A stretch of DNA of 36,571 nt. Origin: a virus (lineage: Duplodnaviria; Caudoviricetes). The translations under genes were made by a program, and so were the position numbers. The first letter of the stretch is position 1, and each line of letters starts with the position of its first letter. Below the pieces are notes generated by a model, which searched no databases, was not told the origin of the DNA, and was given only the letters and a program-made list of their open reading frames with translations. Shown here in pieces: positions 1 through 36,571 of this stretch. The stretch is from the IMG/VR virus record IMGVR_UViG_3300046786_000671, positions 1-36,571 of that record; one strand, 5' to 3'.

Positions 1-577
1 CAGTTATGAAAGCTTGCGACTCATGGACAAAGAAACACGCAGACCGCGACACTGGAAATTTACAGGAGCGCGCAACGGCGGTTTAGTTTATGATGTTATT
101 GCTGACGAGTGCCACGCATTAAAGAACCCACAAAGCAAACAGAGTAAAGCTGTTTATGAAATAGTACAAAGCGGTGGTGTATTTATTGGCTTGAGTGGTA
201 CACCGATGCCGAACGGATGGGTAGATTTTGCAGGATATTCAAAGCTGTTTGGTTTTGTCAAAGGTATCACAGAATTTAAAAACAAATATTGTCGCTACCA
301 AGATTACAAAGGTTTTCCAGAACTGATTGGCTATAACAATATTCCAGAGCTTGAAAGCCAACTGAAGCGCGTTGCGTTTAAACTATCGCGCGAACAAGCT
401 GACGAATTACCAAGCCGAAAAATGATTGGAGTAAATATACATCAGACAGCGAAAGATGCCAAGCTATATACTGAACTGAAAATTACACGCATTGATCCGC
501 GAACTAAAGAAGTACTAGAAACAGCACCACGTTTGTTATCGGTCTTGCGTCAATCAACAGTAAATGGGCGGTTAGAT
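1..577 (+). repeat. Terminal redundancy, copy 1 (imperfect direct repeat of 35995-36571)
   Basis: Hand alignment: no indels, about 32 substitutions in 577 nt; the first ~57 nt and last ~100 nt are identical. Implies a circular unit of 35,994 bp. Confidence 0.95.
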
Positions 578-1430: not shown

Positions 1431-1865
1431 ATGCGACCAATACCTAAACATGGAACTACTGCACGATACAACTCTCCTAAACATAGTTGTAGATGTATCA
1501 GATGTAGCAAAGCTTCTGCGAAGTACCAACGTGATCGTAGGCTTAGTAAACCAGATGTAGCAGAACGAAATAGGCTAGGAGTCTTGAAAAAACAACGTGC
1601 TAATTATCAGCTAATTGTTTCTCAAAAAAAAGATGTACCATGTGCAGATTGCGGGATAGTATACCCTCATTATGTTATGCATTTTGACCATCTTGGTTTG
1701 GAGCCGAAATTATTTACTGTTTCTCAAATGCGACAAACTACTCCGAAAGCAATACTTGCAGAAATAGCAAAATGCGAGTTGGTTTGTGCTAATTGTCATG
1801 CAGTTCGTACACATGATAGATTAAATAATACTACAAAAACTATTGACAGAACGAAAAGTTTTTGA
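1431..1865 (+). CDS. HNH-type endonuclease with N-terminal Zn motif
   Basis: HGT..Y....CRC..C N-terminus; CADCG...HFDHL...KCELVCANCH. Confidence 0.75.
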   Translation: MRPIPKHGTTARYNSPKHSCRCIRCSKASAKYQRDRRLSKPDVAERNRLGVLKKQRANYQLIVSQKKDVPCADCGIVYPHYVMHFDHLGLEPKLFTVSQMRQTTPKAILAEIAKCELVCANCHAVRTHDRLNNTTKTIDRTKSF

Positions 1866-1895
1866 TAGACTAATAACACTAAGCAAAGGAACGCT
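1836..1895 (+). promoter_or_regulatory. Early promoter P2 and leader with GGAACGCT box
   Basis: AAAACTATTGACA, 17-nt spacer, TG-A-TAGACT (1863-1871), then AAGCAAAGGAACGCT-ATG; same layout as the promoter at 33769-33831. Confidence 0.75.
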
Positions 1896-1994
1896 ATGGG
1901 TAAAATCAAAGTAAAATATGTGCCAAGTTTATACAAAGCCGTTATGGGTTTTGATGGCAAGAAAATGTTTATATTGCGATGGAAGAAGCAATAA
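1896..1994 (+). CDS. Basic microprotein, 32 aa (MGKIKVKYVPSLYKAVMGFDGKKMFILRWKKQ)
   Basis: First ORF after P2, AAAGGA SD, overlaps the next start. Confidence 0.5.
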   Translation: MGKIKVKYVPSLYKAVMGFDGKKMFILRWKKQ

Positions 1995-2263
1995 TACAAA
2001 TCGGTTTAGCCGTTAAATGTAATTATGGCGATTGCGGCATAATTGGTCGCGTCAAGCCAGATAAACAATATGACGGTTGGTACAAATCTAAAATGTTGCG
2101 TATGCGCTGGAAGAAACAATGGTTTTGTCCGGATCATTACGAACAAGGAAGGGAGCTAGACAACAGATTTTACGAAAACTATAAAACACCACATCCGTAC
2201 ACTGATAAAGAGTTAGAGGATCGTGAAAAAACCGAAGAAGAACTTTACAAATTATTAGATTAG
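1979..2263 (+). CDS. Hypothetical protein, probable Zn finger
   Basis: CNYGDC...WFCPDH; operon context. Confidence 0.65.
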   Translation: MEEAIIQIGLAVKCNYGDCGIIGRVKPDKQYDGWYKSKMLRMRWKKQWFCPDHYEQGRELDNRFYENYKTPHPYTDKELEDREKTEEELYKLLD

Positions 2264-2272
2264 GAGAAGACG

Positions 2273-2662
2273 ATGACACAGAATCAAAGCACACAATTAG
2301 TTAAGAACCCACACACCAAAAAAGCACTTGCAGTTTTGCAGAAATTTGCAGAAGTTGAAGCCGGTTATAAAGCTATGGAAAAAGAAGCCAAAGCCGCCAC
2401 TGAGCTTATTAAAGAAGCGATGATTGCCGGTGGCATAAACAAGATTGATGTTGATCTTGATAACTTCACTGGTTACATCACGCTAGCCGAGCGTACCAAT
2501 TATAAAGCTGAAGACCTAGACGAAGTTGCAGACGAGTTCAAAAAGCCAACGCTTGATACTGACAAAGTAAAAGCACAAGCTACATTGACTGGTCAATTGC
2601 CAGCTGGTGTTGTTGAGTCTAAGACGCAATATATTACTAAGAAATTCAAGGCAGTAAAATAA
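2273..2662 (+). CDS. Siphovirus Gp157-like protein
   Basis: Coiled-coil N-terminus, then V.DEFKKP.LD...VK.....G..P.GV C-terminal pattern; AGGAG SD; lies upstream of Sak4/SSB. Confidence 0.55.
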   Translation: MTQNQSTQLVKNPHTKKALAVLQKFAEVEAGYKAMEKEAKAATELIKEAMIAGGINKIDVDLDNFTGYITLAERTNYKAEDLDEVADEFKKPTLDTDKVKAQATLTGQLPAGVVESKTQYITKKFKAVK

Positions 2663-2940
2663 TGCTTACCCTACAACAACTCAAAGACATGGAGCCAGAT
2701 ACAATATTTGCTACTGGCGAAACTACTGATGGTTACGATGCAGTAAATATGTATGGCAAAGGTCAAGAATTACGATGGGTAGCAACGCGTGGTGGTATTC
2801 ACGATTGGGCTATTTATGTTGCACCTAAAGATTGGACCGAAGAAATGGTTAAATCTAATGGTGACAAAGTTCACAACCGAGAGTCAGTTAAAAAGCTAGT
2901 GCCTTGCGATGATGAAGCACTAGGGATGTACCGAGACTAA
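2662..2940 (+). CDS. acb4: Acb4-like putative cyclic-nucleotide sponge (anti-CBASS)
   Basis: 92 aa with NMYG.G..L.WVA.RG..HDWAIY...GDKV....LVPCDDEAL..YR, matching my recollection of the SPO1 Acb4 family; not verified by search. Confidence 0.55.
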   Translation: MLTLQQLKDMEPDTIFATGETTDGYDAVNMYGKGQELRWVATRGGIHDWAIYVAPKDWTEEMVKSNGDKVHNRESVKKLVPCDDEALGMYRD

Positions 2941-2941
2941 T

Positions 2942-3016
2942 ATGTTTATAGATGTACTTTTTGGCTTCATCTGGAATTGGGGCAAAGAACGAATTAATAA
3001 ATGGAGAAATAAATAA
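2942..3016 (+). CDS. Amphipathic micropeptide, 24 aa (MFIDVLFGFIWNWGKERINKWRNK)
   Basis: Fills the gap exactly: starts 1 nt after the previous stop and ends in a TAATG overlap. Confidence 0.5.
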   Translation: MFIDVLFGFIWNWGKERINKWRNK

Positions 3017-3249
3017 TGGCACGACCACCTATTGAAATAGCCAGAGACTCACTTAACAAAGCTCTTGGTAAAAATAATGCTATTGCAAGTCAAGCGCATA
3101 GCCTTGATTCAATCGCCGCCAGCTTATTAGTTATTGCGCGTCATCTAGAAGCTAAAGAAGATCCACAAATTACTGAAGATCAAGTAGAGCTTATGATTCG
3201 TAGATTTTTGGATAATATTAAAGAATCTCCAAAGAAAGGTAAAAAATAA
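3016..3249 (+). CDS. Hypothetical protein
   Basis: GGAG SD, TAATG coupling at both ends. Confidence 0.7.
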   Translation: MARPPIEIARDSLNKALGKNNAIASQAHSLDSIAASLLVIARHLEAKEDPQITEDQVELMIRRFLDNIKESPKKGKK

Positions 3250-3860
3250 TGGCTAGATTAATATTTGTGCTTGGACATCCAGGCACAGGCAAGTCATCAA
3301 GCTTGCGTAATTTCAAGAAAGAAGACGTAGGTTATATTTCAGTTACCGGTAAAGAATTGCCGTTTAAAACTGAACTAAGTCCGGTAGTTGCGAAGACATC
3401 ATTAGATGTAGCAGCACTCATAAACAAGAGTAAGAAGCCTGTAATAGTGGTGGATGACGTAAATTATCTATTCACATTTCAGGTGTTTGGACGATCACAA
3501 GAAAAGGATCAATTTCAAGTATTTCGTGATATTGGTAACAACTTTTATAAGCTTGTTGAGACAGTTCTAAACAAAGACACCGATCAGAATATATATTTGT
3601 TTGGTCACATTGAATTGAACGATAGAAACTTGGTGCAATTAAAAACGGCTGGTAAAACAATACGTGATAATATTGCACCTGAAGGCTTAACCAATATAGT
3701 CCTTGAAGCAGTAAATGATTTGGGTGAGTTTGTCTTTAAAGTACGATCAGACGGTTTGGGCGTGAAGTCACCGATTGATATGTTTGAAGACAACACGATT
3801 CCTAATGATTTAAAATTAGTGAATGAAGCAATTAATAAATATTACAAAGGGGGCAAGTAA
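3249..3860 (+). CDS. Sak4-like AAA ATPase (AAA_24), ssDNA annealing/recombination
   Basis: Walker A GHPGTGKS, Walker B VIVVDD, KSP..MF...IPNDL C-terminus. Confidence 0.8.
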   Translation: MARLIFVLGHPGTGKSSSLRNFKKEDVGYISVTGKELPFKTELSPVVAKTSLDVAALINKSKKPVIVVDDVNYLFTFQVFGRSQEKDQFQVFRDIGNNFYKLVETVLNKDTDQNIYLFGHIELNDRNLVQLKTAGKTIRDNIAPEGLTNIVLEAVNDLGEFVFKVRSDGLGVKSPIDMFEDNTIPNDLKLVNEAINKYYKGGK

Positions 3861-3861
3861 G

Positions 3862-4278
3862 ATGAGTGATTTAGCTAGAACACCAGGCTACAGAGTAGCT
3901 TACAATATCAATCCACGAATTGAAGCTTTGAATAGTTTTGATAGTGATGGTAATCCTACAGGTGGTAATGTCTATCTGAAGGTTACTAAAAATGGTGATA
4001 CCGAACATCCAGCTATGGTTATCAATTGGCAGGATGGACCGCGTGGTACTGATATGCAAAATGCAGATGGTACGCCAGTACTTGCAGATCCGAACGGTGC
4101 ATTTGTTGAAGATGTAATTTGGGCTGCTATCCAGCGCCTAGAGTTCTTTAACGAAAGCAAATACCGTTGCCGCGAAAATAGCTTGGCAATCACTAAGCTA
4201 GAAGAAGCATTGTTTATATTAAAAGATCGCCAGCTATCACGCAGCGAACGTAACGTAGAAGGAAAGCATGAAGTTTAA
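3862..4278 (+). CDS. tad1: Tad1-family immune-signal sponge (anti-Thoeris/anti-CBASS)
   Basis: I.WQ.GPR...NG...ED.....RLE.F....Y.CREN..AITKLEEAL.....R...R..RNVEG matches the Tad1 C-terminal helical-hairpin signature; start reassigned to ATG 3862 (AGGGGG SD). Confidence 0.8.
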   Translation: MSDLARTPGYRVAYNINPRIEALNSFDSDGNPTGGNVYLKVTKNGDTEHPAMVINWQDGPRGTDMQNADGTPVLADPNGAFVEDVIWAAIQRLEFFNESKYRCRENSLAITKLEEALFILKDRQLSRSERNVEGKHEV

Positions 4279-4477
4279 GAATAAGACGAAGCTTAAAAAA
4301 GAGCTATCGCCTGAAGGTAAACAAGCAATATCAGTTTTGCATAATGCCGGTAAGCCAATAGATGAATTTGTTGAGTGGACAGCTTTAGACGCATTTCGTA
4401 TGCGAAAAGCTGAAGATATACCTGGTGAAGGTTTAAAAATAACAGTAGTAGAATTTCAAATTAAGGAGATAAAATAA
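4268..4477 (+). CDS. Hypothetical protein
   Basis: Overlap-coupled in the operon. Confidence 0.6.
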   Translation: MKFKNKTKLKKELSPEGKQAISVLHNAGKPIDEFVEWTALDAFRMRKAEDIPGEGLKITVVEFQIKEIK

Positions 4478-5058
4478 TGGGATTATTTGACGATGTACTA
4501 GATAAGGTTGGAGAGCCGTATAGCGGTGGTAAAGGTTTTGAATATGGCACTCACGAAGTAATTATTGGTACTGCTGAAGCAAAGCAGAAAAATACCAAAA
4601 AAGCTGATGACTGTTCAGTTATTGAAATAGTCGTGTTTGATGAAAAAGATAACGACAAAACAGCTACTTGCACGTTTTGGTTTCACACTGACGGCGCTGC
4701 TAAAATGTCGGTTACTAAAGTGCTTGGGTTATTGGTACACAAAGTTTCAGACGAAAAGAAGGACGCTGTACGCGAACTTGGTAAGAAACTATTTGGTAGT
4801 ATTACCGATCCAGTCAAGGCGCGTGATGTAGCTAACAAGCTCATAAATGATAAATTATTGGGTGCTAAAGGTTACTTAGTTGCTGAACCACAAGGCAATT
4901 ATTCAACAACTAGCTATGGTGACTTATGGCACTATCCGGCTGAACCACAGAGCGCACGTACCGATGCTGAAAAAGTAGCTAAAACTACCGGTGGTGCAGT
5001 TGCCGATGATATTGATCCAGCCGATATTCCTAAGTTTGATGGAGAGGATGATCTGTAA
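4477..5058 (+). CDS. Putative ssDNA-binding protein (DUF669-like)
   Basis: G.HEV.I..AE N-terminal pattern, acidic tail (DIPKFDGEDDL), follows the Sak4-like gene, AAGGAG SD. Confidence 0.6.
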   Translation: MGLFDDVLDKVGEPYSGGKGFEYGTHEVIIGTAEAKQKNTKKADDCSVIEIVVFDEKDNDKTATCTFWFHTDGAAKMSVTKVLGLLVHKVSDEKKDAVRELGKKLFGSITDPVKARDVANKLINDKLLGAKGYLVAEPQGNYSTTSYGDLWHYPAEPQSARTDAEKVAKTTGGAVADDIDPADIPKFDGEDDL

Positions 5059-5213
5059 TGGCAGAACGCAAACGAATTAAGAGTGAGGGGTTTGTTGGCT
5101 TACAGCTAACCCCTGACTTGCTCAAGAAATTAGACGCTAAAGTAAAAGCTACAACATTGAACCGTAGCCAGATCATACGCTTGGCACTAATCGCTTACTT
5201 AGACGAAAAATAA
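5058..5213 (+). CDS. Ribbon-helix-helix (CopG/Arc-like) regulator, 51 aa, not in the ORF track
   Basis: MAERKRIKSEGFVGLQLTPDLLKKLDAKVKATTLNRSQIIRLALIAYLDEK: beta strand, LxxLD helix, NRSQIIR.AL..YL helix; TAATG coupling. Confidence 0.8.
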   Translation: MAERKRIKSEGFVGLQLTPDLLKKLDAKVKATTLNRSQIIRLALIAYLDEK

Positions 5214-5299
5214 CAGATACTAGCGTAGGGTAAACGTTTTTGTACCACACATATAGCGTGGTGCAAATGGTTTGTCGTAGGGGTATTATAGAGGGTACA

Positions 5300-6700
5300 A
5301 TGGCAGAAAAAGACGAAATTATACTAACCAATACTGAAGAAAAAATGTCGCTCAAACAGCGTCAAGCAAAGCTAATTTCTATGAAGTATCGGATAGTACG
5401 GTTTAGGGGGGCGGTCTTATACCGCGCTGAAGAAGGATGGGAACCGCTATCATCTGATGAGTTTGCGCGTATATGCTACATCGTTCATGGTGCTGGTATA
5501 CGCCAGACTCAGATCAAGGACTTGCAACACCTATTCTTTACCAGTTCTGATGATCTGACTAAGTACGCTCACTATATTGCTATGCCGAACGGTAAAGTTT
5601 GGGATATGAAAGAGCTGAAATTCACTAGCGAAATATCTCAAGAGGATTGCGTTTACACTACTGCTATTGCACCAACTAAGGGCAAGACACATCGTAAGTG
5701 GCTTGAAGAAGTTACACTTGGTGACAAAGATCTAGCCAACGATATTATTGAAGCCATAGCGCCGGTGTTTATGTACAAAAAGCCGTTTGGTGTGTTCTGG
5801 TTCTTGGGTAGTGGTGCTAATGGTAAGTCCACCACACTAAAGGCGCTGTACGCTATATTTGGTAGTGATGCACCATTTACGCATAACCGATGGTTTAGCC
5901 AGCTAACAGTCAAGCAGATTGAAGACGAGCGCGATACGCCAATGATAAACGGCAAGCTTGCCAACATCTGTTTAGAGAGTAATGACGGTCACATCAAAGA
6001 CACCGGCGGTTATAAAAACCTTGCTGAACACAGCACGTTTAATGTTCACAAATTCAACAGTCAAGATGGTGTGTATGTTGATGGCAACGTGCATACGATT
6101 TTCAACGCTAACAATATCCCTACTTTTGCTGATAAAACTCAAGGTGTTAGACGGCGTACATTTACTATTCCGTTCAAGGCTAGTTTTGAACAGGATAACA
6201 CCTTTGACGAAAAACTATTTACTGAAAACTTTTTATCTGATCTACTTGGTGAGATACTTGAAACCACTAAGAAATTAGCTAAAAATGGCTATGCCTATAA
6301 CTTCAGCGAACAAACGATTAAAGCTAAAGAAGACTATGACGAAGAAGTAAATACCGCCGAAACCTACTTTGAAGAACTGATGCAAACTGAAGTGTGGGGC
6401 TTCACCAACTTCACTGATCTAACTAAGGACTACCAACAATGGTGTGATGATAGAAGTTACACCGCGCTTGGTAAAAAGTCAGTTGCTCATGCCGCTAAAA
6501 CCACCGGCTTTGAACGCAAGTCATTTAGACAGGGTGAAAAGCTTATTACCAGATACGTTTGTGAAAATTGGAATCCGGAAGATCTAGCTGAAATTAAGCA
6601 ACGATGGGGTATGTTCCAGAAGGCAGATAGTGAAATTGAGTTAGTAGAATCAGAGAATACACTTGACAATACTTATGATAATTTGATTAAGTTGCTGTAA
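5300..6700 (+). CDS. D5/P4-family SF3 replicative helicase (no primase domain recognised)
   Basis: Walker A GSGANGKST, GKLANI, NAN..P...DKT.G..RR...IPF; start moved to ATG 5300 after GAGGG. Confidence 0.85.
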   Translation: MAEKDEIILTNTEEKMSLKQRQAKLISMKYRIVRFRGAVLYRAEEGWEPLSSDEFARICYIVHGAGIRQTQIKDLQHLFFTSSDDLTKYAHYIAMPNGKVWDMKELKFTSEISQEDCVYTTAIAPTKGKTHRKWLEEVTLGDKDLANDIIEAIAPVFMYKKPFGVFWFLGSGANGKSTTLKALYAIFGSDAPFTHNRWFSQLTVKQIEDERDTPMINGKLANICLESNDGHIKDTGGYKNLAEHSTFNVHKFNSQDGVYVDGNVHTIFNANNIPTFADKTQGVRRRTFTIPFKASFEQDNTFDEKLFTENFLSDLLGEILETTKKLAKNGYAYNFSEQTIKAKEDYDEEVNTAETYFEELMQTEVWGFTNFTDLTKDYQQWCDDRSYTALGKKSVAHAAKTTGFERKSFRQGEKLITRYVCENWNPEDLAEIKQRWGMFQKADSEIELVESENTLDNTYDNLIKLL

Positions 6701-6816
6701 TGGCTAACTATAAACGAAAAGCAAACTATAAATCTAAACGTTCTTGTGGGCTTTGTAAGCCGCATAAGCGTATTGGTAATTCTAGGAAGTTAGAGAAAAA
6801 GAAATGTCTTCATTAA
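6700..6816 (+). CDS. Basic Cys microprotein, 38 aa (MANYKRKANYKSKRSCGLCKPHKRIGNSRKLEKKKCLH)
   Basis: TAATG coupling; CxxCKPHK motif. Confidence 0.55.
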   Translation: MANYKRKANYKSKRSCGLCKPHKRIGNSRKLEKKKCLH

Positions 6817-7538
6817 AACAACGATTTGAAGAAATGATACACATGAACTGGGGCGATTTTGTTTTGCTTGAAGCAGACAGATCAGCCAACGTTGATGATG
6901 GTGTACTGTGTTCACTAATTCGTATCTGTGCCGATACCGATGATATTGCTGCTATTAAGCTAGCGTTTGATCGTATAGATGGCTTGCAGGAAATACCGAT
7001 TGATATTAAAGTACCGAAGTTTTATGTCCGATTTGTTAAGGCTAAAGAAGCTGAACCAATGCCAAAAGAATTGCAAGCACCTGATGATATTAAAGCTGAA
7101 AAAACTGATTATGATCCGGCAACTGCTAAGTTGCGTGAAACCCTGAAAGAAATGCGTTCTATGCCACAGGATGTAATACGCGTGGTGCGTGGTTATAAGA
7201 AGAAGATTGATAAAGGGCAACCGGTCAAGCATGATCCGATGGTAAAATCCGTCATTGTTGCTAATCTGTTGCTAAACGTGCGTAAGGGGCGATTTCGTGC
7301 GATTGAACTAGTATTTGACCAGATAGACGGTAAGCTTACGCGTACCATAGCGCTACTTGGCGGCAAAGATGTTGTCGTGGACAACACCACCGAGCTTGTG
7401 GCGCCAGCCGGTTCAATATTAGGCGAAGATGGCAAATATTTGTGGGAAGATCCGATAATGAAGGCTCAATGGCTGCGTGGCTTCGCTCAAAGCCAGAAGG
7501 GGCTAGAGATTCTAGCCGAAGGGTTAGGTGATGAGTGA
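6804..7538 (+). CDS. Putative terminase small subunit-like protein with a duplicated DUF5681-like module
   Basis: Two copies of the motif: DIAAIKLAFDRIDG and RFRAIELVFDQIDG. Confidence 0.5.
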   Translation: MSSLKQRFEEMIHMNWGDFVLLEADRSANVDDGVLCSLIRICADTDDIAAIKLAFDRIDGLQEIPIDIKVPKFYVRFVKAKEAEPMPKELQAPDDIKAEKTDYDPATAKLRETLKEMRSMPQDVIRVVRGYKKKIDKGQPVKHDPMVKSVIVANLLLNVRKGRFRAIELVFDQIDGKLTRTIALLGGKDVVVDNTTELVAPAGSILGEDGKYLWEDPIMKAQWLRGFAQSQKGLEILAEGLGDE

Positions 7539-7821
7539 GGGCGAACTTCAGGCCAACATTAGAAAATACTTAAAAGGGAAGGGGTGCTATGTACTCAAGA
7601 CCAGACCGGACGCCAGAGGTAGTACTCCTACTGGTTGCCCTGATATTATATTTTTGCTTGAGGGCTTTTGGGGAGCTATTGAAGTGAAGGCGTCACCGAA
7701 GGCACCATATCAAGTATTGCAAAAAGAAACGCTTGAAAAACTTGATATTTGGTCGTGGGCTAGGCGCGTTGATCCTACCACCTGGCCAGAAGTCCGGGCA
7801 GAATTGGAAGCGATGTTATGA
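7531..7821 (+). CDS. VRR-NUC / Holliday junction resolvase-like PD-(D/E)xK nuclease
   Basis: SE..LQ..I..YL, G.PDI, IEVK, Q motif. Confidence 0.85.
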   Translation: MSEGELQANIRKYLKGKGCYVLKTRPDARGSTPTGCPDIIFLLEGFWGAIEVKASPKAPYQVLQKETLEKLDIWSWARRVDPTTWPEVRAELEAML

Positions 7822-8006
7822 GGCGTGCGTATATCCCGAAACCACATCATGTGAATCGGTGCGTATGCGGCAAAAAGAAATCTAGTCAAGCGCAAGCTAA
7901 AAGAGAGGCAAAATACTTGAAATACAATAAGAAATATCCAGATCTGATACCAATGGTTTATAAATGTAAGCAGTCCGGTTGGTGGCACGTTGGTAATTCA
8001 GCATGA
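7818..8006 (+). CDS. Small basic hypothetical protein
   Basis: CGKK...YKC...GWWHV; ATGA overlaps at both ends. Confidence 0.65.
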   Translation: MRRAYIPKPHHVNRCVCGKKKSSQAQAKREAKYLKYNKKYPDLIPMVYKCKQSGWWHVGNSA

Positions 8007-8539
8007 TTATTTATCACGATGTAGAACAAGGTACGCCAGAGTGGCACGCATTACGCGCCCCCCTATGGACAGGCTCAAAAGCACTTCGATTATTGCAGGG
8101 TAAGTCGTTGCCCGAAGATAGAGAGTGGCGCGGTAACGATGCTACTCGGCGCGGCCAGATGCTAGAGTATTCAGCTATCCGTGAGTATGAGCGCAAATAC
8201 CGGCGCAAGGTGGCGCGGCCAGGCTTTGTGACTAATACGGTTTATACCAATGCCGGGTACAGTCCTGACGGTATAGATGGTGGCTGGTTGCTAGAGTGCA
8301 AAGCTTTTAATGGTGTGCGCCACGAAGATCTAGTGGCTGAAAAGATACCACTTATTGTTTTAGTACAAATTTACTTCGGTATGATAATCACCGGCAAGCG
8401 CAAGGCACGACTGTTAGCCTTCAACCCTGAATTTGAAGAACAACTTACTGTGATCGAAATCACATATGACAAGCGGATCGGTAATAATATTCGTCAAAAA
8501 TTACGCCTAGATATGAAGAACCGCCAACTACTTTCGTAA
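8003..8539 (+). CDS. YqaJ-like (lambda exo family) exonuclease
   Basis: QGTPEW...R, G..LE, SPDG, LECK, Q motifs. Confidence 0.88.
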   Translation: MIIYHDVEQGTPEWHALRAPLWTGSKALRLLQGKSLPEDREWRGNDATRRGQMLEYSAIREYERKYRRKVARPGFVTNTVYTNAGYSPDGIDGGWLLECKAFNGVRHEDLVAEKIPLIVLVQIYFGMIITGKRKARLLAFNPEFEEQLTVIEITYDKRIGNNIRQKLRLDMKNRQLLS

Positions 8540-8647: not shown

Positions 8648-8700
8648 CTCTAATTATATCACTGATTGACATATTACCTCTGTTGTGCTACTATAATAGA

Positions 8701-8768
8701 GATTGACTGCTCCCCGAAAATATCAGCGTTCCAACTATTGCTATTCTCTTGGGAGCAGTTTTTATTTT
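8701..8768 (+). ncRNA. Candidate antisense sRNA B (~65 nt single hairpin)
   Basis: TTGACA(8666)-17-TACTAT with TG extension; stem GACTGCTCCC/GGGAGCAGTT plus U tract; no ORF; loop TCAGCGTTCC is complementary to the early leaders. Confidence 0.7.
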
Positions 8769-8770
8769 GC

Positions 8771-8944
8771 AAACAAAAAAGCCCCCTTTAGGTGGGAGCA
8801 TTTGTAGGTGGATATATCCCTATTTTATCGTTCATCTTTATTTCTTGTTTGATGTAACTGCGAGGTATACACCAATAAAGTTTTGAGACTTATGTGTGCG
8901 AGGTGGAGTTTTGGGAGTGTTAGTGCTTATAAGGTACGATATCC
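8771..8944 (-). ncRNA. Candidate sRNA C (~175 nt)
   Basis: TG-C-TATGAT at 8959-8951; terminator GCTCCC/GGGGGC plus T6; two ACCTCGCA repeats; only a 15-codon ATG ORF. Confidence 0.55.
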
Positions 8945-8989
8945 AAATAAATCATAGCATAAGCTTTTTAGATGTGCTAGAATAATTAA

Positions 8990-9060
8990 ACGTGAGTTTG
9001 AGTTTACAGAGGTGTAAACTAAAAAAGACGAGTACTGTTGCGAGGGTACTCGTCTTTTTA
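8990..9060 (+). ncRNA. Candidate sRNA D (~70 nt, two hairpins with GAGG loops)
   Basis: TG-C-TAGAAT 8975-8983; AGTTTACA-GAGG-TGTAAACT; then the terminator hairpin. Confidence 0.55.
9022..9059. terminator. Bidirectional intrinsic terminator (lysis operon and RNA D)
   Basis: AAAAAGACGAGTAC-N10-GTACTCGTCTTTTT. Confidence 0.85.
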
Positions 9061-12485: not shown

Positions 12486-13841
12486 ATGCAAATACCAGCA
12501 CACAGATTTCCACTACGTGACTACCAAATAGAGATCGTAGAAGCGCTTAATAACCCTAAAATTGACGAATTGTTGCTAGTCATCGCGCGTAGAGGTGCAA
12601 AAACCACCACGACTTATAGTGAAGGTATCGTGCCATCACTAGTAAAAGAGGTACAAACGGCTGTTGCCGTCTATCCAACTGCCAAAATGGGCTTTGATAA
12701 CTTCTGGACTAACATTGAAGATGATGGTTTCAGGACTGTAGATCACCTTCCAAAAGAGCTATTAGCTATGAACGGTCAGGGTAATTCAGAAGATGATATG
12801 CGCCGGACACTGATTAACGGATCTATATTTAGAGCGCTAGGTGCTACTAATTATGATGCTTTACGTGGTGCAAACGGTAAAACCTACTGGTTTGACGAGT
12901 TCGCGGATCAGAACATTGAAGCCGTAAACGTTATTGCGCCTATTACTGAAGCCAACGGTGGTAAGCGTATTTACACCGGTACGCCTAAGATTGACGGTAT
13001 AAACGGTGAAACTATGCGCCGTATGCACGAATCATTTAAAGCTGATACTACTGGTACTAAGTACACTTGTTACATTGATGCTACACACTATATGACACCG
13101 GCACAGCTAGAAAAAAGCCGACAAGGTTATATCTTGCGTGACGGTAACGACTTCAAGTTTCGTCAAGAAATGCTGCTTGATTGGGGGCAATCTTCAACAA
13201 GTAGTTACTATGGTGCAATTATGAGTGCTAAAGATAAAGACGGTACTATTGGTGAATATGCTCATAATCCAGCACATCCAGTCTATACCGTATGGGATCT
13301 AGGTAAAGCTGATACTATGGTTATTGGTTTTTTCCAAGTTATAAAGAACAAGGTATGTTTGATAGAAGTTTTTGAAACAAATAACTTCGGTCTAAATACC
13401 ATTATTCCGTTCCTACAGAGTAAACATTATAACTATGGTTGGCACTTCTTGCCGCATGACGGCACAGTTGCAAGCTTAAATGACAATGTTAGCCGTATTG
13501 CATATCTACAGAGCAAGGGTATTAATAATGTATCAGCACTCAAGAGAGAGGGCGTTTCTATAGGTATTGGACGCGTCAAAGACGGCTTGCCAACACTTCT
13601 TATAAATGAAGGTATGACAAATAACATCAGCCGTAGAATACGCGCTTACAAGCGTAAGTTTAACCCTACTACCGGTGACTACATTGGTCCGGATCATAAG
13701 AGCGAGAGCCACATAGCTGATATGTTGCGCTACTTGTTTGCTGCACTACAAATATATTTCAATGAAAAAGGTGAGTTTATACTCACCCTTAACAATGAAG
13801 AAACGTATCAGTCCGATTTAGCGACTGTTACTTATTCTTAG
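12486..13841 (+). CDS. terL: Terminase large subunit
   Basis: LRDYQ adenine motif, RRGAKT Walker A variant, LRG, FDEFA Walker B, TPK, WDLG..D, LPHD, SH.AD..RY nuclease motifs. Confidence 0.92.
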   Translation: MQIPAHRFPLRDYQIEIVEALNNPKIDELLLVIARRGAKTTTTYSEGIVPSLVKEVQTAVAVYPTAKMGFDNFWTNIEDDGFRTVDHLPKELLAMNGQGNSEDDMRRTLINGSIFRALGATNYDALRGANGKTYWFDEFADQNIEAVNVIAPITEANGGKRIYTGTPKIDGINGETMRRMHESFKADTTGTKYTCYIDATHYMTPAQLEKSRQGYILRDGNDFKFRQEMLLDWGQSSTSSYYGAIMSAKDKDGTIGEYAHNPAHPVYTVWDLGKADTMVIGFFQVIKNKVCLIEVFETNNFGLNTIIPFLQSKHYNYGWHFLPHDGTVASLNDNVSRIAYLQSKGINNVSALKREGVSIGIGRVKDGLPTLLINEGMTNNISRRIRAYKRKFNPTTGDYIGPDHKSESHIADMLRYLFAALQIYFNEKGEFILTLNNEETYQSDLATVTYS

Positions 13842-30147: not shown

Positions 30148-31116
30148 ATGAGCGTAAATACATTAGTCAAAGATGGACTACTAACAAATATAAACGTACC
30201 AGTTCACATAGCCAGAGTAAACACCGGCAAAGATGTAGACTACAATCCAGGCTTGGCGCGCGATCCGGACGGCAATACTTGGATCAGCATCAGATCATGT
30301 ACAACAAACCTTGAGAAATGGAAGGGTTTAGCACACCCTATGAAATACCAAAATTACCTGTATGTTGGGCTATTAAACGAAGATAATTTTGAAATAACTC
30401 AACTAAAAGAGATTTTACCTGAAGCAGATTATGACGAGTATTTTCATTGGGGACCGGAAGATATGCGATTATTCTGGCGCAAAGATGGCTTGCATGGTAT
30501 CGGTGTAGCCATACCGGTTGAAGGTGGACACTACAAAATACGCCAAGTTGAAATTCTGATAGATCACAAAGCCGGTACATACAAGCTAATTAAAGATTAT
30601 GGTAGACCGTTCGGACACGTTGAAAAAAACTGGATGCCAACAGAACATCCTAACCCTTATTTTGATTTTATATATTCAACAACTCAAATAGTAAAAGACG
30701 GTGAAGTAATCGGTGAACCAAACGACTTATTTTTGCATCAGGGTACACCCCTGATTAAGTATGAAGACGGCTATATTTCAATTGCTCATGCTGTGATAAG
30801 TGTCACAGGTCAGCGTACTTACGGACAAATTGCGCTTAAATGGAGCGCTGAAGGTGAACTGCTAGAACACAGTCAGTTTTTCCACTTCAACGTAGGCTGG
30901 CGCGAACAACTGCAAGAAACAATTGAATTTGCTTGTGGCTTACTCTGGTCAAAGGGTAAAGAAGGTGAAGAACTGCTAGTTGGTGTCGGTATCAAAGATG
31001 AACTGATCGGACTATGCCGGTTGCCGGTAAGCAAATTCAAGTGGGAGCGATACAGCGATACGATGTGGTATTCATGGCGTTGGGATGAAATGCCAAACCG
31101 CACCGAAATCCACTAG
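30148..31116 (+). CDS. Five-bladed beta-propeller glycoside hydrolase-like protein (GH130/GH43-like)
   Basis: YNPGL, GPEDMRLF, EKNWMP, GTP, IEFACGL, G.KD motifs. Confidence 0.65.
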   Translation: MSVNTLVKDGLLTNINVPVHIARVNTGKDVDYNPGLARDPDGNTWISIRSCTTNLEKWKGLAHPMKYQNYLYVGLLNEDNFEITQLKEILPEADYDEYFHWGPEDMRLFWRKDGLHGIGVAIPVEGGHYKIRQVEILIDHKAGTYKLIKDYGRPFGHVEKNWMPTEHPNPYFDFIYSTTQIVKDGEVIGEPNDLFLHQGTPLIKYEDGYISIAHAVISVTGQRTYGQIALKWSAEGELLEHSQFFHFNVGWREQLQETIEFACGLLWSKGKEGEELLVGVGIKDELIGLCRLPVSKFKWERYSDTMWYSWRWDEMPNRTEIH

Positions 31117-32677: not shown

Positions 32678-32895
32678 CAGCCCTTATCCGCTTGTGCTTC
32701 AAAGTCCAGTTGCAATTGATTAGGATCATCATACAACTCACGATCCAACATAGCCGCACCACCGCGATAATGGTCACTCATAAAGTCCGGTGCTTCTGTA
32801 GGCAAAAACGAAACCATCCGACCAACACCCCTAGCAATAGCCGTCAGTCGCGGAAACAAATCTATTTTAGGAAACGGATTTTTGTCTTGTTCCAT
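32674..32895 (-). CDS. Hypothetical protein
   Basis: Leaderless TG-C-TATAAT 6 nt before ATG. Confidence 0.7.
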   Translation of the reverse strand: MEQDKNPFPKIDLFPRLTAIARGVGRMVSFLPTEAPDFMSDHYRGGAAMLDRELYDDPNQLQLDFEAQADKGW

Positions 32896-33382: not shown

Positions 33383-33739
33383 TGTAACAGGGGTAGAGGG
33401 TACATCCTTATATACACGTATCACGTAAAACCCTATTACAACATAAAACGCTTGTTTTGTCTGTTACATTGTTACACGATCACAGGCACACACTGAGTTA
33501 TTTTTCCTATATATTTTTTTTTCAGTATAAACAAGTGATGCTGTAACATTTCTTTTATCTGTTTTTAGGCTTTTTTGATGGCTCAAACCTACCTCTGTTG
33601 TAACAATTAAATACTATATATTAAGACATTGTTACACCAACAATGCAACTTTTGACAAGTAGCTGTAACATTATATAACATACTAAACACCTCACGACCT
33701 CTGTTATTCCATGTTTTATTTACAACGCTAACAGGGGTA
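33383..33739. repeat. Iteron-like array of TGT(A/T)ACA and AACAG(A/G)GGT; candidate origin or packaging region
   Basis: TGTWACA at 33383, 33462, 33470, 33542, 33599, 33630, 33664 in AT-rich non-coding DNA. Confidence 0.65.
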
Positions 33740-33768: not shown

Positions 33769-33804
33769 AAAACTATTGACAAACTATTGTCACTAGCCTA
33801 TAAT
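33769..33804 (+). promoter_or_regulatory. Consensus early promoter P1 with overlapping operator-like palindrome
   Basis: TTGACA 33776-81, 17 nt, TATAAT 33799-804; TGACAA-ACTA-TTGTCA inverted repeat; AAACTATTG tandem repeat. Confidence 0.85.
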
Positions 33805-33810
33805 GGTGTT

Positions 33811-34011
33811 CAGTCAAGCAAGGAACGCTGACACAAACCAATGATCGTGACGTTTGCGAACAAAGCACCGATCAAACAATATTAACTAATGGTGTTCACA
33901 CATCTATATAAAAAGTTACGATTGAACCAAAGCTGTTACCATAAGCGACAAACTGGCATCAACTCACATTTATATAGACGCGTGGACATCATAGAAAAGG
34001 TGTAAAAATCT
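33811..34011 (+). promoter_or_regulatory. ~200-nt structured 5' leader of the early operon
   Basis: Hairpins 33813-33832 and 33842-33874, and a 24-bp stem 33889-33912/33969-33992 ending just before the SD. Confidence 0.65.
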
Positions 34012-34626
34012 ATGTTACTAAACGATTTAGAAAAAGAGCTGATGAAGCTTGCACAGGATGCGCGCGATCTTGGCTATACAGTCACAACGCCAGCATTATT
34101 TGCTGATAGTATATATGGCAATAAGCTTGCATATTACCAGCATGGACGCAATAAAATTGTGTTTCACGATCACTTTGTTGAAAATGGAACGCCAGAAGAA
34201 ATAGAAAATACGCTTATACATGAGTTAGCTCATGCGGTAGCTGAACAGAATAACCCAAAGCCTGAAAAGCGTGTATGGCATGGCGATTTTTGGAAAGAGA
34301 TCAACAATAAATTAGGTGGTGATGCGGAACGATACCATCAAGGCGGTTACAAAAAGCCAGAGCATAAGAAAATGTCAATGGCTGAAATGTTTGCTATACA
34401 ACCAACAAAGCCAGCTACAGAGTGGGAACGCGGAACATTTAATCAGTGGTTACGGCGTGGCTATCACGTAATCAAAGGACAAAAAGGATCATTAGCTGTT
34501 TGGGAATTTGTCGCGGATGAATACGAAACAGAGAAAGACGGCAAGACCTCAAATTATGGACGCGCAAGCGCTGTTTACTTCACACCAGACCAAGTAGAAC
34601 CTAACAAGCCAAAGGAGATTAAATAA
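34012..34626 (+). CDS. SprT-like Zn metalloprotease fused to an ArdC-N-like ssDNA-binding domain
   Basis: TLIHELAH...HGDFWK; C-terminal TFNQW...GY.V.KGQKG...F..DQV. Confidence 0.75.
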   Translation: MLLNDLEKELMKLAQDARDLGYTVTTPALFADSIYGNKLAYYQHGRNKIVFHDHFVENGTPEEIENTLIHELAHAVAEQNNPKPEKRVWHGDFWKEINNKLGGDAERYHQGGYKKPEHKKMSMAEMFAIQPTKPATEWERGTFNQWLRRGYHVIKGQKGSLAVWEFVADEYETEKDGKTSNYGRASAVYFTPDQVEPNKPKEIK

Positions 34627-34627
34627 T

Positions 34628-34819
34628 ATGGACCAAGTAAAAGAACGAGGATCTGCAAGCATAATTGTTACGCTTGAAAATGGCAAAATATACGTTGAAC
34701 ATGGTACTGATGACGCTGTACTAGCTGAGTGGACGGCACAAGCTGGCGATTGGGATAAGATTTGGCAAGTGATTAGAGCTTTAGAAGCTGGCAACGCAAT
34801 AGAAATTAAGGAGTTTTAA
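34628..34819 (+). CDS. Hypothetical protein
   Basis: AAGGAG SD, operon context. Confidence 0.7.
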   Translation: MDQVKERGSASIIVTLENGKIYVEHGTDDAVLAEWTAQAGDWDKIWQVIRALEAGNAIEIKEF

Positions 34820-34821
34820 AA

Positions 34822-34905
34822 ATGCAAAAATATTGGTGCGATTGGTGCGGTAGTTTTGACAGTCGCAAAGAGTGGCTAGAACACTACTGTTTCACCGCTA
34901 AATAA
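34822..34905 (+). CDS. Zn-finger microprotein, 27 aa (MQKYWCDWCGSFDSRKEWLEHYCFTAK)
   Basis: AAGGAG SD; CxxC...HxC. Confidence 0.6.
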   Translation: MQKYWCDWCGSFDSRKEWLEHYCFTAK

Positions 34906-34969
34906 TAAATGACCGATTGCTGTGAAGTCATTAAACTAGCCAGCACACCAAATAATAAGGGGGTAACTC

Positions 34970-35248
34970 ATGCAATATGAGCTAACACCAGTAAAACAAT
35001 TAACTATTACCCGAAAGGGTGGGAAGGACAGTAAAATGTCTAAAACAACACAAACCGAAGTTGCAAAAACTTCAAAGAAATACGCTAAGACTAGGGGCGA
35101 ACATTACAAAGATATTGTAATCACAATACTAGTTACAGCAATAATTGCGTTTATCTGTGGCGCTGTATTTCAGAGCAAGCAACAGAACGCAATAAATACA
35201 GCCGTCAAAGCTGTTACGCCAAGCGCACACGCTGAAGCGTTAAAATAA
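34970..35248 (+). CDS. Single-TM membrane protein (alternative start MSK at 35036); N-terminal half of a probable frameshift fusion
   Basis: Basic N-terminus, IVITILVTAIIAFICGAVF helix; SD-like sequences before both starts. Confidence 0.75.
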   Translation: MQYELTPVKQLTITRKGGKDSKMSKTTQTEVAKTSKKYAKTRGEHYKDIVITILVTAIIAFICGAVFQSKQQNAINTAVKAVTPSAHAEALK

Positions 35249-35616
35249 CGGCGGTGGCTGTTGAGACTGACCAACAGCCAGTAAATTTACCGCCAGCAAT
35301 ACCATTAACACCATGTGAAACGGTACGCGCTGAGATTGCAAAATATTCTGGTTGGGATGTTGCAACGATGAGCGCAATTGCCGAAGCTGAAAATAGATCT
35401 TGTGATCCGACTAGGCACAATTTAAGCGCTGACGAAAATCACAAAGTCTGTATTGGAAGCTATGGAGTTTTACAGGTTGGATGTGTTCACTATAACGGCG
35501 AAGATGTCAATGATCTGAAAACAAACGTTGCAATTGCACACAAGGTATGGCAAAAGCAAAGTTACGGCGCATGGACTCAGTACAACAACGGCACATATAG
35601 GGAGTTTCTAAAATGA
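35242..35616 (+). CDS. Lysozyme-like / lytic transglycosylase domain, probably reached by -1 frameshift
   Basis: AIAEAE (catalytic Glu), SYGVLQV, N..IA..V...Q...AW..Y; the GTG at 35254 has no clear SD and lies in a hairpin. Confidence 0.75.
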   Translation, partial: KITAVAVETDQQPVNLPPAIPLTPCETVRAEIAKYSGWDVATMSAIAEAENRSCDPTRHNLSADENHKVCIGSYGVLQVGCVHYNGEDVNDLKTNVAIAHKVWQKQSYGAWTQYNNGTYREFLK

Positions 35617-35768
35617 AATATCACTACCAAAAAGGCTTACAAGTGGGGTGGAGTTTAGGGAAGTGTTTAGATGGAGTGGCAATAGTAGGGTGGTTACTGT
35701 TACTCACGATCATTATTGACATGATGCTATTCAATGGACAATTATTAACGAAAGTACTAATGCGATGA
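35613..35768 (+). CDS. Small membrane protein, 51 aa
   Basis: ATGA overlaps at both ends, GGGAG SD, VAIVGWLLLLTIII helix. Confidence 0.65.
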   Translation: MKYHYQKGLQVGWSLGKCLDGVAIVGWLLLLTIIIDMMLFNGQLLTKVLMR

Positions 35769-36571
35769 AATTATACGATTATCAAGAACAATATATTGCG
35801 AAACTACCACCTAGCTGTATTATGGCTGCCGACTTGGGAACAGGTAAAACGCTTATGAGTCTTGCACACTGGCAAAGGCGCGACACCGGTAGACCATTAT
35901 TGGTTGTTGCACCAGCAAGCAAGATCCGAACGCACGACTGGTTAGAAGAAGCCGAACGGTGGTTTGGTATGGACAATGCCGACATTACTTATATCAGTTA
36001 TGAAAGCTTGCGACTCATGGACAAAGAAACACGCAGACCGCGACACTGGAAGTTTACAGGCGCGCGCAACGGTGGTTTGGTTTATGACGTTATTGCTGAC
36101 GAGTGCCACGCGCTGAAGAACCCACAAAGCAAACAGAGCAAAGCCGTTTATGAAATAGTGCAAAGCGGTGGTGTATTTATTGGGCTTAGTGGTACGCCAA
36201 TGCCTAACGGCTGGATTGATTTTGCAGGATATTCAAAGCTGTTTGGTTTTGTGAAAGGTATCACAGAATTTAAAAATAAATATTGTCGCTACCAAGATTA
36301 TAAAGGTTTTCCAGAATTAATTGGCTATAACAATATTCCAGAGCTTGAAAGCCAACTGAAGCGTGTTGCATTTAAACTATCACGCGAACAAGCTGACGAA
36401 TTGCCAAGCCGAAAAATGATTGGAGTAAATATACATCAGACGGCGAAAGATGCCAAGCTATATACAGAGCTGAAAATTACACGCATTGATCCGCGAACTA
36501 AAGAAGTACTAGAAACAGCACCACGTTTGTTATCGGTCTTGCGTCAATCAACAGTAAATGGGCGGTTAGAT
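35765..36571 (+). CDS. SNF2-family helicase, N-terminal part (runs off the window end and continues at position 578)
   Basis: MKLYDYQ Q motif, ADLGTGKT Walker A, LVVAPA motif Ia, ISYE, DECH. Confidence 0.9.
   Translation, partial: MKLYDYQEQYIAKLPPSCIMAADLGTGKTLMSLAHWQRRDTGRPLLVVAPASKIRTHDWLEEAERWFGMDNADITYISYESLRLMDKETRRPRHWKFTGARNGGLVYDVIADECHALKNPQSKQSKAVYEIVQSGGVFIGLSGTPMPNGWIDFAGYSKLFGFVKGITEFKNKYCRYQDYKGFPELIGYNNIPELESQLKRVAFKLSREQADELPSRKMIGVNIHQTAKDAKLYTELKITRIDPRTKEVLETAPRLLSVLRQSTVNGRLD
35995..36571 (+). repeat. Terminal redundancy, copy 2
   Basis: Matches 1-577 without indels. Confidence 0.95.

Follow-up and report, generated by a model that had tools for sequence, protein, structure and literature searches.

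What does a short, ORF-less RNA predicted just past the replication genes of an uncultured phage do, and does it act on the phage's early transcripts? The initial annotation of this locus proposed that the RNA, whose loop is antisense to a box shared by two early leaders, may silence both early operons and provide RNA-based immunity or early shut-off. The window, by which we mean the whole stretch of DNA analysed (36,571 nt), represents an entire phage genome of ~36 kb. The contig ends overlap (window 1-577 and 35995-36571), indicating that the genome is circular or permuted; identity within the overlap is ~93% for its first 300 nt, suggesting that two strain variants were assembled together. 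The early and replication region occupies the plus strand, from promoter P1 (33776) through the junction to the YqaJ gene (8539), and the structural genes lie mostly on the minus strand. Promoters followed by the box are found upstream of the helicase and primase genes, which belong to two predicted operons:

1979..8539, plus strand, predicted P2 operon: Sak4-like annealing protein, RHH protein, D5-type primase-helicase, resolvase and YqaJ exonuclease
34012..36571, continuing at 14-1012 (the ends overlap), plus strand, predicted P1 operon: SprT-like protein, small ORFs and SNF2-type helicase

The RNA, here called RNA B, is delimited by the following features:

8666..8694, plus strand, RNA B promoter, sigma-70-type: TTGACA at 8666-8671, a 17-nt spacer and an extended -10, TG-n-TACTAT, at 8686-8694
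8701..8768, plus strand, predicted small RNA B: closing stem 8705-8714/8751-8760, U-tail and a guide loop of ~35 nt
8723..8732, plus strand, RNA B seed: TCAGCGTTCC
8738..8742, plus strand, second pairing segment of RNA B, TTGCT: GC(T/A) is found within 8 nt past the seed in 40 of 45 aligned copies

The unit has its own promoter and terminator, a conserved structure and no ORF, which agrees with the earlier description of a near-consensus promoter driving an ORF-less hairpin. Because the promoter ends ~6 nt before RNA B, no precursor is required. The closing stem and U-tail double as the predicted terminator, and the hairpin has a folding energy of -19.6 kcal/mol (z -3.65). The seed had been placed in the apical loop; its coordinates held, but only its TTCC lies in the apical loop of the predicted fold, and its AGCG forms a weak 4-bp helix with the downstream TGCT. 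As a result the loop of RNA B is an imperfect mirror image of the leader hairpin, which reads AGC, loop AAGGAAC, GCT. The segment TTGCT thus has two predicted partners, the AGCG of the seed in cis and a leader AGCAA in trans. A search of 8701-8768 against Rfam gave no match at E values up to 10. From three sequencing runs assembled to contigs, one low-depth contig covers the promoter and RNA B; the run is probably DNA and is uninformative on expression.

The proposed targets lie 6.8 and 10.9 kb from RNA B, on separate transcripts:

33776..33804, plus strand, early promoter P1, 12/12 consensus
33813..33832, plus strand, predicted 5'-terminal hairpin of the P1 transcript: AGCAA at 33817-33821 and box GGAACGCTGA at 33822-33831
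1843..1871, plus strand, early promoter P2: TTGACA, 17 nt, extended -10
1880..1898, plus strand, predicted weak 5' hairpin of the P2 transcript: AGCAA at 1882-1886 and a box at 1888-1895 that overlaps the RBS
1896..1994, plus strand, first P2 ORF, 32 aa, with related short peptides in many relatives

The P1 complement was correctly located, and the P1 leader is indeed predicted to fold with AAGGAAC in a hairpin loop. In P2 the box GGAACGCT abuts the ATG at 1896. The next gene starts, without an SD, at 1979, inside the end of the 32-aa ORF, an overlap that points to translational coupling. The AGCAA just 5' of each box matches the TTGCT of RNA B, so that the pairing has two parts, and the spacer between the two pairing segments varies within one genome.

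A potential concern with so short a match is that it arose by chance or as a by-product of an anti-SD-like loop, particularly as the match contains the SD core and the single-genome statistics are modest. The 8-mer core occurs three times in the window against 0.62 expected (reached in 1/100 shuffles, in a post hoc test), and a random 40-nt window reaches the match length found for P1 with p=0.003 and that found for P2 with p=0.035. When non-overlapping sites from 14,331 windows were ranked by raw duplex energy, P1 came 6th and P2 47th, so that the leaders do not stand out by this measure. RNAcofold gave no seed duplex and was rejected, since it cannot model loop-loop pairs, and the accessibility-corrected duplex was used. 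This gave -11.4 kcal/mol for P1 and -6.8 kcal/mol for P2, compared with -1.0 +/- 3.1 for 498 random windows, a set that reached a minimum of -12.5 and from which the leader windows were not excluded. Support against chance from the single genome is moderate.

Relatives of the phage provide a second source of evidence. The RNA B unit recurs in 44 further distinct related loci, found through YqaJ-anchored scans (15, 39, 44, 3 and 54 loci, in overlapping sets) and by scanning viral contigs with DNA patterns (119 and 106 loci, the majority unrelated; only those with homologous proteins were kept). The alignment comprises 45 distinct copies, identical duplicates, L287, a degenerate copy in L298 and the loop-deleted L329 having been omitted. 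The consensus fold is a single stem of 8 pairs with a large conserved loop, and 8/8 consensus pairs show changes on both sides. Stem cells are paired in 92% of cases, compared with 81% in shuffles (a value reached by 0/500) and 38-61% in slid controls, with the proviso that relatedness inflates such tests. A TTGAC-like -35 is present in 38 of the 45 copies. The seed core reads AGCGTTCC in 35 rows, GGCGTTCC in 2 and AGCGCTC(C/A) in 6, and two shorter forms occur once each. In L294 the entire cassette is inverted together with its promoter, which argues that the hairpin is not merely the terminator of the operon.

RNA B was absent after YqaJ in at least 10 in-family loci with at least 595 nt of sequence there, and so looks dispensable. 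Model R1, run over 48 further loci including 16 distant ones (L387-L402, partial regions), recovered the known L259 copy and one weak match; matches were found in 0 of 151 genomes of the Saccharibacteria order, in a search run without a positive control. A search of the literature, most subscription journals apart, turned up no description of RNA B or of this phage family. By sequence and predicted structure RNA B is a candidate new RNA family of the C4/CI kind, lying outside those families. Two loci show disruption of the unit itself. At L019:6910-7500 an endonuclease-like insertion replaces RNA B in a locus 98% identical to its RNA-bearing relative L026, and at L329:4774-4812 the guide loop is deleted and the stem kept.

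We compared seeds and leaders in 18 genomes that carry RNA B and at least one readable leader (L007+L026 and L265+L298 were pieced together from exact overlaps). A perfect complement of at least 7 nt to the genome's own seed was present in 20 of 26 leaders and in 15 of the 18 genomes. The six leaders without it were P2 of L007, P1 of G004, P2 of L303, P1 and P2 of G005, and P2 of L265+L298; one genome combines RNA B with a P1 box only, and another has a variant RNA B and no P2 box. In three RNA-less genomes the box was found in 0 of 4 leaders (Fisher p=0.015 for RNA-bearing versus RNA-less genomes, which are not independent). Two of the RNA-less set, G014 and G015, are 33% and 48% complete, so that RNA B could lie in their missing parts, and the P2 leader of G015 is identical to that of RNA-bearing L007+L026, which makes this not a clean co-loss.

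Seeds and boxes also change together. Relative to the homologous L282 leader, L253 has a T>C change in the seed and an A>G change in the box. The same swap is seen in L324/L332 in another clade, which has its own supported branch in a quick tree of 41 rows (L259 and L338 omitted, L267 on a long branch); the match in the L324 clade is mostly plain SD core, a sequence that could become GGAG through independent drift. The L267 seed is one base shorter, and each of the two leaders, P1 and P2, has a 9-nt match to it. In the accessibility-corrected duplexes, class II and class III RNAs bind their own leaders best, and class I RNA binds the class II leader too, through G.U. The three seed classes with their matched leaders thus constitute natural compensatory variants that are ready to test.

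These data bear directly on chance. The box is kept in P1 leaders that lack a nearby conserved start codon and in 7 P2 leaders where it is distant from the RBS, and L267 shows a double compensatory change; chance, or a by-product of an anti-SD-like loop, is strongly disfavoured and in our estimation extremely unlikely. The covariation of seed and target boxes among related contigs, proposed as a check in the initial annotation, was found, and pairing of RNA B with both early leaders is well supported by the compensatory changes and the co-absence. We consider it very probable that RNA B base-pairs with both.

Further matches and tags were noted in individual loci. L267:1569 is an additional cognate site of 11 nt inside the early region, and at a promoter-proximal RBS in a close relative (L401:780) 11 nt match the L332-type RNA. 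At L265:2486 and L298:1414 two promoters share a different 5' tag, AAAGGATCA, which is unmatched by the variant RNA B of that genome.

The position of the box indicates what has been conserved. Across relatives it lies at +10 to +20 from the predicted transcription start, and its distance to the start codon is not kept. Of the 19 boxed P2 leaders, 12 have the box over the RBS and 7 have it 18-35 nt before the start codon; in main-class (class I) P1 leaders it is not an RBS. Being tied to the transcription start, the box appears to be kept by selection at the 5' end of the transcript, with RBS overlap an added effect. The proposal that the core spans the SD up to the ATG of the first P2 gene is thus accurate for this genome (1888-1895), but overlap with the SD is of secondary importance. 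The box is inside a predicted hairpin beginning no more than 3 nt from the 5' end in 21 of 24 leaders. These hairpins are weak (-0.9 to -9.7 kcal/mol) and their covariation is modest, with 76% paired, a score reached by 2/500 shuffles and pair-type counts that are not significant.

A box at +11/+12 downstream of all three promoters would also suit a repressor, and could represent the DNA operator of a single protein, with the hairpin serving only as a terminator. An RHH protein is encoded, and a change in the specificity of one protein could shift all sites together. The box, however, is always sense in the leaders and antisense in RNA B, even where the cassette is inverted in L294, whereas the ACCYCTGT box described below, which does resemble a genuine DNA site, inverts. 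The spacer between the segments differs within one genome, something that a duplex tolerates and a DNA site would not; G.U-compatible variants are found in L258 and L292; and no protein tracked the presence of RNA B among the near-complete genomes compared. We regard the operator explanation as very unlikely, and return to pairing between RNAs.

Matches to genome bins were to Saccharibacteria in 2 of 3 cases and to Dechloromonas in 1 of 3. A 17-kb bin contig, checked in full, contained phage genes only and no host junction. No further bins were found: a capsid profile matched none of 201 genomes of the Dechloromonas order and, among 401 of the Saccharibacteria order, only the bin itself. These data point weakly to Saccharibacteria as host. 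In this candidate order Rho was above cut-off in 0 of 61 genomes, and RNase J and RNase III were each above cut-off in 58 of 61 (the set includes one unpublished genome, G060). A Rho-dependent route of the P4 type is thus unlikely.

The presence of RNase J and the tie of the box to the start site rather than the RBS would be compatible with activation, RNA B shielding the early mRNAs from 5'-3' decay by pairing at their 5' ends. There is precedent in RoxS-yflS of B. subtilis and FasX-ska of S. pyogenes, where, according to the available text of PMC5419742, sRNA binding at the mRNA 5' end, upstream of the RBS and in cells with RNase J, stabilises the mRNA. RoxS and FasX cover the extreme end, however, whereas the duplex with RNA B would begin at +3 to +13 and leave the first bases free, and RNA B is predicted to open a protective hairpin. 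The 5' end is predicted to be hairpin-protected already without RNA B, and the RBS would be covered in the 12 boxed P2 leaders noted above. Activation therefore seems to us unlikely. The RBS coverage and the free first bases together point to a repressive sign, and net repression of the early transcripts is probable. Of the proposal that RNA silences both early operons, the pairing is the part that stands on compensatory changes and co-absence; silencing is a likely consequence.

RNA B is thus likely a trans-acting antisense RNA of ~65 nt that pairs with the 5'-terminal hairpins of both early transcripts, and we envisage its action as follows. RNA B would be made from its own predicted promoter by host polymerase. 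Its UUCC loop would kiss the GGAA loop of the leader, and both weak stems could then exchange strands to give ~8-10 bp plus 4-5 bp. In the 12 P2 leaders with overlap the duplex would cover the RBS of the first ORF, which in the window encodes the leader peptide. In P1 and in the RBS-distant P2 leaders, opening of the hairpin may free the first 3-5 nt and form a duplex; more speculatively, the freed 5' end and the duplex would promote decay by RNase J or RNase III, not Rho-dependent termination. Since all three promoters are consensus, RNA B would build up as time passes and genome copies increase, serving as a timer of early shut-off and a brake on replication. Superinfecting kin would be excluded as a side effect.

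Integrase, CI and antirepressor families were absent among the 50 window ORFs scanned. In near-complete relatives a tyrosine integrase was found in 0 of 10 records, and in near-complete genomes a serine recombinase and HTH_3 (CI-type repressor) were each found in 0 of 5. The statement that the phage has no recognisable CI repressor is in keeping with this, with the qualification that a small RHH protein is encoded at 5058-5213. The longest contig among the 120 matches listed of 542 core-protein homologues is 38.9 kb, and no integrated copy was thus seen. With no integrase, CI-type repressor or integrated copy found, classical immunity is unsupported, and with it the suggestion of RNA-based immunity in that sense. 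The GenBank phage set yielded only 6 matches, all below 60% identity, and atlas searches matched hypothetical proteins. Given three consensus promoters and no lysogeny module, the simplest role for RNA B is delayed negative feedback on the early and replication genes, as a shut-off timer or a replication or copy-number brake, to which we assign a probability of roughly 0.55.

A different possibility arises from a second conserved element in the RNA B promoter:

8676..8683, unstranded, ACCYCTGT box in the RNA B promoter spacer

This box occurs in 30 of the 45 RNA B promoters, plus 2 in inverted orientation, and, in 10 of 11 genomes, in the 450 nt preceding P1. Copies in both orientations are found at 8676, 33387-33394, 33591, 33697 and 33731-33738 of the window; RNA-less G014 showed none in the 451 nt before P1. 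ACCYCTGT is likely the DNA site of some protein, possibly an operator, an origin iteron or a packaging site. If such a protein repressed the RNA B promoter, the pairing could be the immunity or maintenance repressor of a non-integrated, plasmid-like carrier state controlled by a double-negative switch. The logic would be like that of C4 and CI RNA; the box is orientation-independent and is found again upstream of P1, class III does not cross-react with class I, and the overlapping ends are those of a circular or permuted genome. Partition or integration genes, however, were not found, and the ACCYCTGT-binding protein is only putative. The seed core is the same in 35 of 45 copies despite YqaJ identities of 55-87%, unlike diversifying immunity groups, and the class II change does not escape class I RNA (-14.1 vs -13.1, through G.U). 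We consider this carrier state doubtful. A broader scenario, in which phages of Rho-less Patescibacteria (Saccharibacteria) lacking repressor and integrase use an RNA-only master switch, with a mirror hairpin that de-protects both early 5' hairpins, a three-sRNA cassette, and a DNA-binding protein that restrains the RNA to give bistable lytic and carrier states, is likewise tentative and rather unlikely as a whole. Should repression through opening of 5' hairpins hold, a phage that lacks a protein repressor, and whose host probably lacks Rho, would time or limit its early genes by RNA, and this would be a first handle on RNA regulation in a phage of candidate ultra-small hosts.

Delayed feedback by RNA B can be compared with known antisense systems. 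RNAs of the CopA/CopT type engage by a loop-loop kiss and strand exchange between mirror hairpins, the constitutive RNA restraining replication genes. These copy-number RNAs are cis-encoded and fully complementary, whereas RNA B is trans-encoded, is an imperfect complement and has two targets. The CA RNA of N15 is P4-like, is processed from its own operon and limits the early phage operon; RNA B is proposed to be a small RNA of similar effect, without an Rfam match. Termination by P4 CI RNA is Rho-dependent, whereas searches of the candidate host order of the RNA B phage gave no Rho above cut-off. According to the available text of PMC4825925, CI is an antisense RNA through which the element shuts down its own replication operon by way of two leader sites; it is processed from the transcript it controls, is flanked by seqA and seqC, and causes premature termination. 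RNA B, in contrast to CI and IsrK-seqA, is not nested in a leader between seqA and seqC and has two distant target transcripts. C4 RNA of P1 and P7 (RF01695) shares with RNA B two short, loop-borne segments that pair in trans with the phage's own mRNA near the RBS, along with seed-target covariation; in the accessible portions of PMC12197685 and PMC5320573, a change of seed alters its target specificity. C4 comprises three stem-loops, is released from a precursor by RNase P and represses an antirepressor in temperate phage (PMC5320573 and PMC8546580, in the portions available), whereas RNA B has one stem-loop with its own promoter and terminator and would bind the 5' ends of early operons. There is also no antirepressor target among the 50 ORFs, and the Rfam C4 models gave 0 matches at gathering score in the window. 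TIGR-Tas was considered and rejected, there being no array and no matching protein family in the window.

RNA B is accompanied by two further units:

8772-8948, minus strand, second small-RNA-like unit: a -10-like motif upstream and a terminator tail-to-tail with that of RNA B
~8975-9060, plus strand, third unit: an extended -10, then a hairpin in which CAGRGGTG is conserved, and a terminator whose loop, TGCGAG, is also conserved

The second unit has a closing stem, 5' GAGUAU/3' AUACUC, with compensatory changes (8 of 11 consensus pairs covary in 16 copies), and a large unpaired CU-rich loop with an anti-SD-like stretch, for which the best RBS match is 8 nt, at the gene start at 34823. It also occurs in loci without RNA B. 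The third unit is found in many relatives, and the flanks of its CAGRGGTG vary yet stay paired. We discarded RNA C as a guide to the ACCYCTGT box, there being no covariation between the two at the variable base.

Other features of gene arrangement were observed in the window. An HNH gene (1397-1865) with its own promoter is inserted just 5' of P2; its start is apparently leaderless, the ATG lying 7 nt past the -10, and a similar leaderless start is found at 32895 on the minus strand. Two plus-strand genes, encoding a terminase-like ATPase (12486-13841) and a conserved uncharacterised protein (30148-31116), run opposite to the surrounding late genes.
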